From Candidatus Saccharimonadota bacterium (GTDB taxonomy: Bacteria; Patescibacteriota; Saccharimonadia; CAILAD01; BJGX01): a stretch of DNA of 55,169 bases. A program made the position numbers and the translations under genes. The stretch's first letter is position 1. Every line of letters starts with the position of its first letter. This document shows, in pieces, positions 25,381 to 26,206 of the stretch. The DNA is taken from positions 27,955-83,123 of the forward strand of contig DAOLHK010000001.1 of the NCBI GenBank assembly GCA_035329105.1, in the 5' to 3' direction. The notes below the pieces were generated by a model, which saw nothing but the letters and a program-made list of their open reading frames with translations, had not been told where the DNA came from and made no database searches.

Positions 25381-25409
25381 TTGACAAATACGCTTATGTT
25401 TGGTATACT
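25381..25409 (+). promoter_or_regulatory. Near-consensus sigma70-type promoter of the Rpf-like gene
   Basis: TTGACA (25381-25386), a 17-nt spacer, then TATACT (25404-25409). Confidence 0.6.
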
Positions 25410-25541
25410 AGCGGGCGTTCTGTGGATTGGTCGATTCCACTCCCCCGCAGAACAGTACATTACATAAGTAAAGAAAGGAGATACGACGCACTCTGAACCC
25501 GCGTAACTTCATCTATATGGTGAAGCACGTATCAGAATATT
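25410..25541 (+). promoter_or_regulatory. ~130-nt structured 5' leader with mutually exclusive pairings
   Basis: GCGGG (25411-25415) can pair with CCCGC at 25444-25448 or at 25498-25502. GTTCTG (25417-25422) pairs with CAGAAC (25448-25453), enclosing the TGGA/TCCA hairpin. There is no obvious SD in front of the ATG at 25542. Confidence 0.35.
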
Positions 25542-26123
25542 ATGCGCCTTCTCAGTCAAGCAGTTGTTGCATTTGCAATGATTGCCAACCAGGTGATAAG
25601 TACGGTACATATCCCTATCACCGATACAGCTAAGGCTGCCGAAGCCCAACCTGTAGTACCAAGTAACTACACATTGACAATCAACACTACACAACCCGAA
25701 GCTCTTGAGCTCAAAGCCAACAAAGGAAACTTCGATCAAGAAGTCGTTGCTCCTTTAAAAGCCGCTCAAGCGCTCAAGGCCGCTGCCGACGCTGCTGCAG
25801 CCCAGGAAGCTGCTAATCGAGCTGCTGCAATTGCTGCTACTCGAGTAAGCTCAGCCCCTGCTGCAAAACCTGTCGTAATAGGCGGTGATGATGCTTTCGC
25901 CAAGCTTCGATTCTGTGAAGCTGGTGGTGACTACACCAAGAATACCGGTAACGGATACTATGGTGCCTACCAGTACGACATGCGTACTTGGGCTAACTAT
26001 GGCGGTTATGCTCGACCTGACCTTGCACCTCCAGAGGTACAAGACGCCAAGGCTCGTGCTACCCAAGCCGCTCGTGGTTGGTCTCCATGGCCTGCATGTT
26101 CACGCAAGCTTGGTCTATTGTAA
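25542..26123 (+). CDS. Secreted Rpf-type (resuscitation-promoting-factor-like) transglycosylase-domain protein
   Basis: 193 aa. Hydrophobic N-terminus and an Ala-rich linker. C-terminal [64 protein letters not shown] matches the Rpf domain pattern (CE[SA]GG catalytic Glu, [11 protein letters not shown], conserved Cys pair). Confidence 0.85.
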   Translation: [193 protein letters not shown]

Positions 26124-26148
26124 GACTGTTCTAACAACTAAATAATAC

Positions 26149-26176
26149 AAAAGCCTCCTGTCAAAAGGAGGCTTTT
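26149..26176 (+). terminator. Rho-independent terminator after the Rpf-like gene
   Basis: AAAAGCCTCC (26149-26158) pairs with GGAGGCTTTT (26167-26176), followed by a T-rich run. Confidence 0.7.
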
Positions 26177-26177
26177 G

Positions 26178-26206
26178 TTGTACTAATTATTGTTTTGTTG
26201 TAGAAT
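26178..26206 (+). promoter_or_regulatory. Candidate promoter of the 26242..26662 bicistron
   Basis: TTGTAC (26178-26183), a 17-nt spacer, then TAGAAT (26201-26206). Confidence 0.45.

Follow-up and report, generated by a model that had tools for sequence, protein, structure and literature searches.

Cultivated Saccharibacteria live on hosts from the phylum Actinomycetota, in which resuscitation-promoting factor (Rpf) enzymes are known to stimulate growth and resuscitation. Hairpin-bridged ribosome-binding sites are documented mainly in T4-type phages. Both bear on the locus described here, an rpf-like gene and its leader in a 55,169-nt stretch of a Candidatus Saccharimonadota genome (contig DAOLHK010000001.1, positions 27,955–83,123), which is referred to as the window. 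Among the actinobacterial rpf genes, rpfA of Streptomyces is controlled by a ydaO/c-di-AMP riboswitch (PMC10117811) and rpfB of Mycobacterium tuberculosis by an RNA switch (PMC6009663). In phage T4, a hairpin reduces the spacing between the Shine-Dalgarno (SD) sequence and the AUG from 22 to 5 nt in gene 38 and from 27 to 11 nt in gene 25, and is needed for translation in both cases (Nivinskas et al. 1999; Malys and Nivinskas 2009, as reviewed in PMC3014915). For the window, we lean towards the view that an old saccharibacterial gene, transcribed as a monocistronic unit from a conserved promoter surrounded by conserved boxes, encodes an exported Rpf enzyme and is translated from a split ribosome-binding site. 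The coordinates of all features are given in Table 1.

The translated open reading frame (ORF) of 193 amino acids (aa) ends in GWSPWPAC. Its C-terminal domain matched PF06737 with 66.7 bits (cutoff 27) and an E value of 2.9e-18, residues 120–186 corresponding to positions 8–77 of the 77 profile positions. In a phmmer search against PDB sequences, RpfB of M. tuberculosis (3eo5) was matched with an E value of 1.1e-17, and RpfC and RpfE were also matched, with E values up to 3e-9. The motif CEAGGDY aligns with CEAGGNW of RpfB and the C-terminal WPAC with WPVC of RpfB. Across 38 aligned orthologs, C125, E126, G128, Y131, G136-N137-G138, Q144, W150 and C186 are invariant. C125 and C186 align with the cysteines of the CEAGG and WPVC motifs of RpfB and are predicted to form a disulfide pair. 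The first-pass annotation of this DNA, made from its letters alone, had described a secreted protein with an Rpf-type domain, including a catalytic glutamate and a cysteine partner, and the profile match, the alignments and the invariant residues bear out this domain assignment. The equivalog cutoffs of NCBIfam were not reached, neither for RpfC (NF046107, 57.0 versus 200 bits) nor for Rpf (NF046106, 53.9 versus 180 bits). These scores are far below the cutoffs, indicating that the protein is a domain-level relative of RpfC and Rpf and not an equivalog. Judged by its domain identity, we regard the product as a genuine Rpf-type peptidoglycan-cleaving enzyme.

The N-terminus starts with MR, followed by hydrophobic residues 3–24, Pro25 (90% conserved) and TAKA|AEA at residues 29–35, as read by eye; (T/S)A-x-A is retained by most aligned orthologs. 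A long N-terminal Sec-type export signal of the Gram-positive type is plausible from this pattern, which agrees with the secretion claimed earlier, although an uncleaved signal anchor is possible instead of a cleaved signal peptide. In either form, the protein would probably be extracytoplasmic. Residues ~33–75 constitute a conserved N-terminal region without a known domain, and residues ~64–101 are predicted to form a long helix rich in Ala, Lys and Glu. The AlphaFold2 model shows a helix at residues 3–19, two short strands, a long helix at 64–101 and a helical C-terminal domain. As far as can be read from the sequence, the protein is a new architecture of a known family in Saccharibacteria. 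No published description of saccharibacterial Rpf proteins was found in the literature search, and NCBI already labels some of the orthologs 'transglycosylase family protein'. Two gene calls with an N-terminally extended ORF of 231–233 aa (P0017 and P0020) were rejected as over-calls; their leader is the same as that of ortholog locus L002. In a further locus, L047 (positions 1–975 of metagenomic contig WBZT01099558.1), sequence 98% identical to window positions 25778–26174 is joined to unrelated upstream sequence of 62–67% GC. The junction falls in the Ala-rich (GCT/GCC-rich) linker, and L047 is probably an assembly chimera.

A homologue search returned 719 matches. Among the 120 matches listed, identities range from 47 to 94%, most proteins are full length (about 185–195 aa) and those with a name are Candidatus Saccharibacteria 'transglycosylase family protein'. 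The superfamily comprises 7381 clusters, with 34 clusters (50% identity level) found at E ≤ 1e-30 in an exhaustive search of representatives. When GTDB was scanned with peptide patterns of the protein, only Actinomycetota and Saccharibacteria were returned, in line with the earlier remark that the family is typical of Actinomycetota. All full-length GTDB matches belong to Saccharibacteria/Saccharimonadia; domain-only matches belong to Actinomycetota or represent other saccharibacterial paralogs. The Rpf domain is 74–94% identical to that of most full-length orthologs and 67–68% identical to the two most distant ones, compared to at most 65% for any actinobacterial copy retrieved. The orthologs group in a single low/mid-GC clade, separate from the actinobacterial copies of 64–76% GC, in a neighbour-joining tree that was computed from 78 residues without bootstrapping and is descriptive only. 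This topology comes close to the deep clade specific to the candidate phyla radiation that the first-pass annotation had named as speaking against its proposal. The gene order of ABC exporter, rpf and LOG-family gene is conserved across Saccharibacteria, in L001, L002, L045, L122 and L132.

The total GC content of the rpf gene (51.4%) is above that of the other ORFs in the window (41.6 ± 3.8%), as had been noted before, and acquisition from a high-GC donor had been suggested on this basis. The GC content at third codon positions (GC3), however, is 37.6% and equals the background value (38.2 ± 6.7%). Only codon positions 1 (64%) and 2 (52%) contribute to the excess, which was traced to Ala, Gly and Pro codons, above all in the Ala-rich linker. 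With GC3 at background, a separate clade and conserved synteny, neither composition nor phylogeny gives a sign of recent import. On these sequence comparisons, rpf is a long-standing and conserved gene of the Saccharibacteria (Saccharimonadia) that was not imported recently; gene transfer between them and Actinomycetota in the distant past, in one direction or the other, is possible.

The strong promoter TTGACA-N17-TATACT, which had been recognised before, is conserved in the orthologs. It matches the consensus at 11 of 12 positions, the −10 element is preceded by TG and lies 132 nt from the AUG, and TTGACA-N17-TAnnnT occurs four times in the window versus 0.72 times expected. Three GYTTATGYTTG-like boxes are conserved at fixed positions around the promoter. 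Of 29 orthologous promoters, 17 carry a AAGCATAAG-like box at −58 to −60, counted from the first base of the −35 hexamer, and both leader groups A and B are represented among them. ATCTGT or CCTGT is located at −32 to −34 in 17, and the inverted CTTATG at +11 or +12 in 21. All orthologs share the promoter pattern TTGACAAA-N3-GCTTATG-YTTGGTATAMT. In the loci examined, TTGACA..GCTT[AG]TG..TAnnnT was found 41 times, each time upstream of a full-length ortholog and never elsewhere on either strand. The boxes are candidate operator sites of some DNA-binding regulator, as inferred from their conservation. In a search for a regulon, no second copy of the 12-mer TGTCAAGCATAA and no repeat of the boxes was present elsewhere in the window, and a leader profile of group A (nhmmer) matched rpf leaders only. 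A second GCTTATG..TATAAT at position 28503 was rejected as a regulon member, since it lacks a −35 element and looks like chance. Leaders of group B (L052–L057; e.g. L052 at about 2394–2402) have an extra AAGCATAAG box inside the transcribed leader, at ~+80 from the −35 element; in this group, copies of the box occur on either side of the promoter as well as inside it. At the other end of the transcription unit, the hairpin downstream of the stop codon was flagged by terminator-finding on the minus strand, and the core stem GCCTCC/GGAGGC followed by TTTTGTTGT was read from the sequence on the plus strand. The rpf unit is therefore monocistronic.

The leader of ~130 nt, another element of the first-pass annotation, turned out to be long, structured and conserved in the orthologs. 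It contains the SD sequence GAAAGGAG, for which a duplex energy of −10.3 kcal/mol with the assumed anti-SD CACCUCCUUUC was calculated, placing it among the strongest SD matches in the window. The other strong SDs of the window (ΔG ≤ −7) mostly end 3–11 nt before the start codon. No SD was found within 30 nt of the rpf AUG, where the best match reaches −5.8 kcal/mol at 15–18 nt. Orthologous leaders have kept GAAAGGAG, GAAAGGAU or a sequence like them at 14–64 nt from the AUG, according to a crude best-match assignment that cannot be relied on in a few cases; in group A the distance is 58–64 nt. Post-transcriptional control had been suggested earlier because an SD was missing at the start codon. 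The absence near the AUG stands, but the argument is weak: an SD is present at a distance, and by crude start calls many genes of the window also lack a proximal one. Translation of a leader peptide from the remote SD was considered and rejected: no AUG, GUG or UUG is suitably spaced from the SD in group A, the upstream AUG of other groups is missing (L069) or lies in varying frames (L006, L071, L081), and translation in the window would stop at an in-frame TGA at 25521.

The RNA between the SD and the AUG is predicted to fold into a multi-helix structure. Its best supported element is hairpin P3, for which a covariation score of 0.797 was obtained, versus 0.286 ± 0.064 for shuffles (0 of 500 reached the observed score) and at most 0.255 for slid controls. 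Changes occur on both sides in all 5 pairs, and in a hand alignment these core pairs are canonical in 12 of 12 sequences, with 2–4 pair types each. When folding begins at the SD, the conformation closed by the candidate helix P2 is the minimum-free-energy (MFE) fold in the window (−16.8 kcal/mol) and in 6 of 8 group-A leaders. It would leave 8–11 nt before the AUG in all 11 aligned group-A leaders. An alternative closing helix P2', which is tentative, reaches −15.2 kcal/mol in the window and equals P2 (−17.2 kcal/mol) in L132. A CGCC/GACG pairing (P4) with a conserved C-A mismatch is nearly invariant, with one possible compensatory change. A hairpin between the best SD match and the AUG was predicted for nearly all of 42 orthologous leaders folded. 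In the short leaders, the number of unpaired nt after this hairpin is 3–8 in the L007 group, 5 in L075 and 10 in the L069/L081 group. These features are consistent with a split ribosome-binding site, a mechanism that we infer for the rpf leader.

The 5'-proximal hairpin P1 is present in MFE folds of the window leader and of most orthologous leaders. The outer 6 bp of P1 do not vary within group A, and distant groups have other arm sequences. P1 was flagged as terminator-like in the distant orthologs L069 and L075, but not in L052, and no terminator-like site was found on the plus strand within 25410–25541 of the window. Rfam yielded no match at gathering score for the window, at E ≤ 10 for the leader or at E ≤ 1 for the leaders of 11 orthologous loci; RF00379 (ydaO/c-di-AMP riboswitch) was likewise unmatched in these searches. 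Pairing of the SD with an anti-SD mimic in the 3' arm of P1 was rejected, as the mimic is not conserved. The most likely function of P1 in this lineage is to protect the mRNA at its 5' end.

In the mechanism that we propose, transcription from the near-consensus sigma-70 promoter would start at about position 25416, and a regulator would probably bind the GYTTATGYTTG-like boxes. The mRNA would open with the stable P1 hairpin, which would serve 5'-end protection here and has the shape of a terminator in distant orthologs. The ribosome-binding site would be split, with the SD 61 nt from the AUG and the intervening RNA folded into P3 closed by P2. With this fold, about 9 nt would remain unpaired from the SD to the AUG, and as the gap is bridged by the fold, efficient initiation is proposed to depend on it. 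The product would be exported via its N-terminal Sec signal, carrying the conserved N-terminal region, the long helical linker and the Rpf domain with Glu126 and the Cys125-Cys186 pair.

Several observations weigh against this reading. P2 is invariant in all 11 aligned group-A leaders, so covariation is uninformative on this helix, and RNAalifold does not predict it. P2' lies within 0–4.3 kcal/mol of P2 in 7 of 8 leaders folded, covaries at one position (G-C replaced by A-U in 4 of 12 sequences) and would keep the SD at least about 17 nt away from the AUG. The fold predicted for group B extends to the start codon. An anti-SD sequence had to be assumed, the window being without a 16S rRNA gene, and many genes of the window appear to lack a proximal SD according to crude start calls. 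On the protein side, the signal peptide was called by eye from sequence and alignment only. The AlphaFold2 model has a mediocre mean pLDDT of 63.8 (61–83 in the Rpf domain), and with this weak model the best PDB match of Foldseek was RpfC (4ow1) with an E value of 0.23 and a target TM-score of 0.48, accompanied by a weak match to RpfE (4cge).

The competing helices raise the question of whether the leader is a riboregulator. P1 would then be a regulated attenuator, and a ligand, a protein or temperature would toggle between P2 (ON, with the SD close to the AUG) and P2' (OFF, with the SD distant from it), with the conserved ACGACGC, CGACGUAU and CCGCC segments as the sensor. Conserved unpaired or internal-loop sequences flanked by covarying helices, the near-isoenergetic P2 and P2' folds, the terminator-like P1 right after the promoter in L069 and L075 and the control of other rpf genes by leader RNAs (PMC10117811, PMC6009663) would fit such a device. 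Against it stand the missing Rfam matches for the leader (E ≤ 10) and the 11 orthologous loci (E ≤ 1), the lack of a U-tract in the window P1 and of an aptamer-sized domain ahead of it, and the dependence of P2' on a single covarying column. The leader length also varies from 91 to 181 nt across ortholog groups with greatly differing architecture, which is unusual for a ligand-binding aptamer. On balance, we consider a riboregulator rather unlikely, although it is the main rival of our reading. Ribosomes might also initiate at the AUG independently of the SD, with hairpins that only stabilise a highly expressed mRNA and a purine tract that is kept as a protein or RNase site or for a similar role. 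Many ORFs of the window lack an SD within 30 nt, and SD-independent initiation may therefore be common here. In addition, the A/U-rich stretch of 9 nt that precedes the AUG (CAGAATATT) is left unpaired by all predicted folds, and a 5'-end-proximal hairpin is a known mRNA stabiliser in Gram-positive bacteria, which we count in favour of this alternative. It is nevertheless unlikely in our view, given that an 8-nt perfect complement of the anti-SD is conserved at only 47–60% protein identity while its flanks diverge, and that orthologs with short leaders keep a normal SD window after the hairpin (3–8, 5 or 10 nt).

The first-pass annotation had combined a recent import from a high-GC actinobacterium with a leader switch that offers GCGGG two alternative CCCGC partners. 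All three pentamers are indeed found in the window, GCGGG at 25411–25415 and CCCGC at 25444–25448 and 25498–25502, and the MFE fold of the window pairs GCGGG with the distal CCCGC. The choice between two partners is seen only in the window, however. L132 (94% protein identity) and L043 (90%) lack the distal copy, and most of the other orthologs contain neither of the partners. The GCGGG/CCCGC switch is not conserved. The import would explain the raised total GC content, but not a GC3 at background, an excess restricted to the first two codon positions of an Ala/Gly/Pro-rich protein, a deep orthologous family in conserved synteny, or a domain closer to most orthologs than to the best actinobacterial copy (65%). 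Taken as a whole, this combination is very improbable. The exported enzyme with a split ribosome-binding site is the reading that we favour.

The conclusion can be extended to a control unit common to Saccharibacteria, in which a three-box operator around a consensus promoter, a 5' hairpin or attenuator and an SD brought to the AUG or kept from it by P2/P2' gate an exported Rpf, whose target would be the cell wall or the state of growth of the actinobacterial host. We regard this extension as quite unlikely; if it is true, the symbiont would use the 'wake-up' enzyme family of the host's own phylum. Independent of this, Saccharibacteria carry their own deeply conserved Rpf-type protein, the domain of which is highly constrained (74–94% across most orthologs). 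The conservation of the protein, promoter, operator-like boxes and leader makes it a candidate key factor, with a candidate role in wall turnover and division of the symbiont or in host interaction. The leader and the boxes are undescribed in Rfam and the searchable literature. Since genetic systems exist for Saccharibacteria today, E126, the SD, P2/P3 and the DNA boxes can be targeted directly.

Other features of the window were recorded alongside the rpf locus. A strain-specific insert of ~1.1 kb (24151–25297), which is located directly upstream of the rpf promoter region and holds a high-GC cassette and two small ORFs without Pfam match, is replaced by ~230 nt in the 94% identical L132. The 41-codon ORF listed in Table 1 (24428..24303), part of the minus-strand region 24140–24516, has G or C at every third codon position, as judged by eye, in a genome of 41% GC; with this foreign codon usage, its product could be a small exported or bacteriocin-like peptide. 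At the window edge, a frame on the minus strand starting from position 1059 encodes more than 353 aa, is acidic with a GC3 of 0.81 and gave no significant Pfam match. Only 8 homologues were found, with 60–100% identity, all of them unnamed metagenomic proteins of 418–496 aa. With its high GC content, this frame stands out as an orphan gene in a genome of low GC. A third high-GC island (47473–47911, plus strand) is located behind a TTGACA-N17-TAATAT promoter. No tRNA, no tmRNA and no Rfam family at gathering score was detected in the 55 kb window.

Table 1 Features of the rpf locus and of other parts of the window
Feature	Position	Strand	Remarks
rpf-like ORF, 193 aa	25542..26123	+	TAA stop at 26121-26123
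Rpf/transglycosylase-like domain, C-terminal, residues 116-193	25887..26120	+	Cys125, Glu126, Cys186
Probable Sec signal peptide, residues 1-32	25542-25637	+	Read by eye from sequence and ortholog alignment
Sigma-70-type promoter	25381..25409	+	TTGACA (25381-25386), 17-nt spacer, TATACT (25404-25409); extended -10 TG
Upstream box 1, GTTATGTTTTG	25303-25313	+	Inverted relative to box 2
Upstream box 2, GTCAAGCATAAC (reverse complement GTTATGCTTGAC)	25319-25330	+	Inverted relative to box 1
Third box, GCTTATGTTTGG	25392-25403	+	In promoter spacer
ATCTGT box	25347..25352	+	~33 bp upstream of -35; ATCTGT or CCTGT in orthologs
P1, 5'-proximal hairpin	25417..25453	+	GTTCTGTGG (25417-25425) with CCGCAGAAC (25445-25453); MFE folds
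Remote SD, GAAAGGAG	25473..25480	+	Ends 61 nt upstream of AUG
Structured spacer	25480..25533	+	P2 enclosing small ACGC/GCGT hairpin and P3; MFE from SD
P2, candidate closing helix		+	GATACG (25480-25485) with CGTATC (25528-25533)
P3 hairpin	25507..25525	+	CTTCATC, loop TATAT, GGTGAAG; covariation
P2', alternative closing helix	25492..25536	+	TCTGA (25492-25496) with TCAGA (25532-25536); excludes P2
Hairpin ACAAAAGCCTCC-TGTCAA-AAGGAGGCTTTTGT, then TGT	26147..26178	+	Bidirectional intrinsic terminator
Small ORF in insert, 88 aa	24864..24598	-	Two CxxC pairs; no Pfam match
Small ORF in insert, 97 aa	25185..24892	-	Hydrophobic; no Pfam match
Perfect promoter TTGACA-16-TATAAT	24516..24489	-	
41-codon ORF MRQTWFTRYHTETTAPDTSNRLFEKGSTITAAGEPTDQLCT	24428..24303	-	After SD AAGGGGGG; no Pfam/Rfam match
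19-bp terminator	24189..24148	-	Preceded by a hairpin; downstream of 41-codon ORF
ABC exporter gene	24111..22324	-	After terminator
Promoter facing 65% GC stretch (window 1-1180)	1180..1152	-	
ORF in third high-GC island, 115 aa	47564..47911	+	GC 57%, GC3 0.71; no Pfam match

Compared to the actinobacterial Rpfs (RpfB, RpfC and RpfE of M. tuberculosis, Rpf of Micrococcus luteus), the window protein has a homologous PF06737 catalytic domain, which is 40–50% identical to that of the M. tuberculosis proteins as judged by eye from the alignments. The CE(A/S)GG glutamate, the NTGNGYYG loop and the cysteine pair are common to both. Unlike them, the window protein is composed of a probable signal peptide, an N-terminal region of ~45 aa, an Ala/Lys/Glu helix and the Rpf domain, without a LysM, DUF348 or G5 domain. 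It is carried by Saccharibacteria instead of Actinomycetota and falls into a clade of its own in the unbootstrapped tree.

The leader RNAs of Streptomyces rpfA and M. tuberculosis rpfB resemble the window leader in that a long structured 5' untranslated region precedes an Rpf gene, and a terminator-like hairpin is present in distant saccharibacterial orthologs. The window leader differs from them in having no match to RF00379 or another Rfam family, no terminator and no discernible ligand-binding domain.

T4 genes 38 and 25 differ from rpf in their shorter linear SD-AUG distance (22–27 nt versus 58–64 nt in group A). Their single hairpin contrasts with a multi-helix fold in rpf, in which the closing helix is a candidate and a competing helix exists. 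In addition, rpf is a cellular and not a phage gene family. If the proposed mechanism is confirmed, the leader would represent a cellular, family-wide hairpin-bridged ribosome-binding site. What rpf has in common with the T4 genes is an excessive linear SD-AUG distance with a phylogenetically conserved hairpin inside it; the spacing is shortened to about 5–11 nt in T4, and rpf would reach 8–11 nt only if P2 closes.

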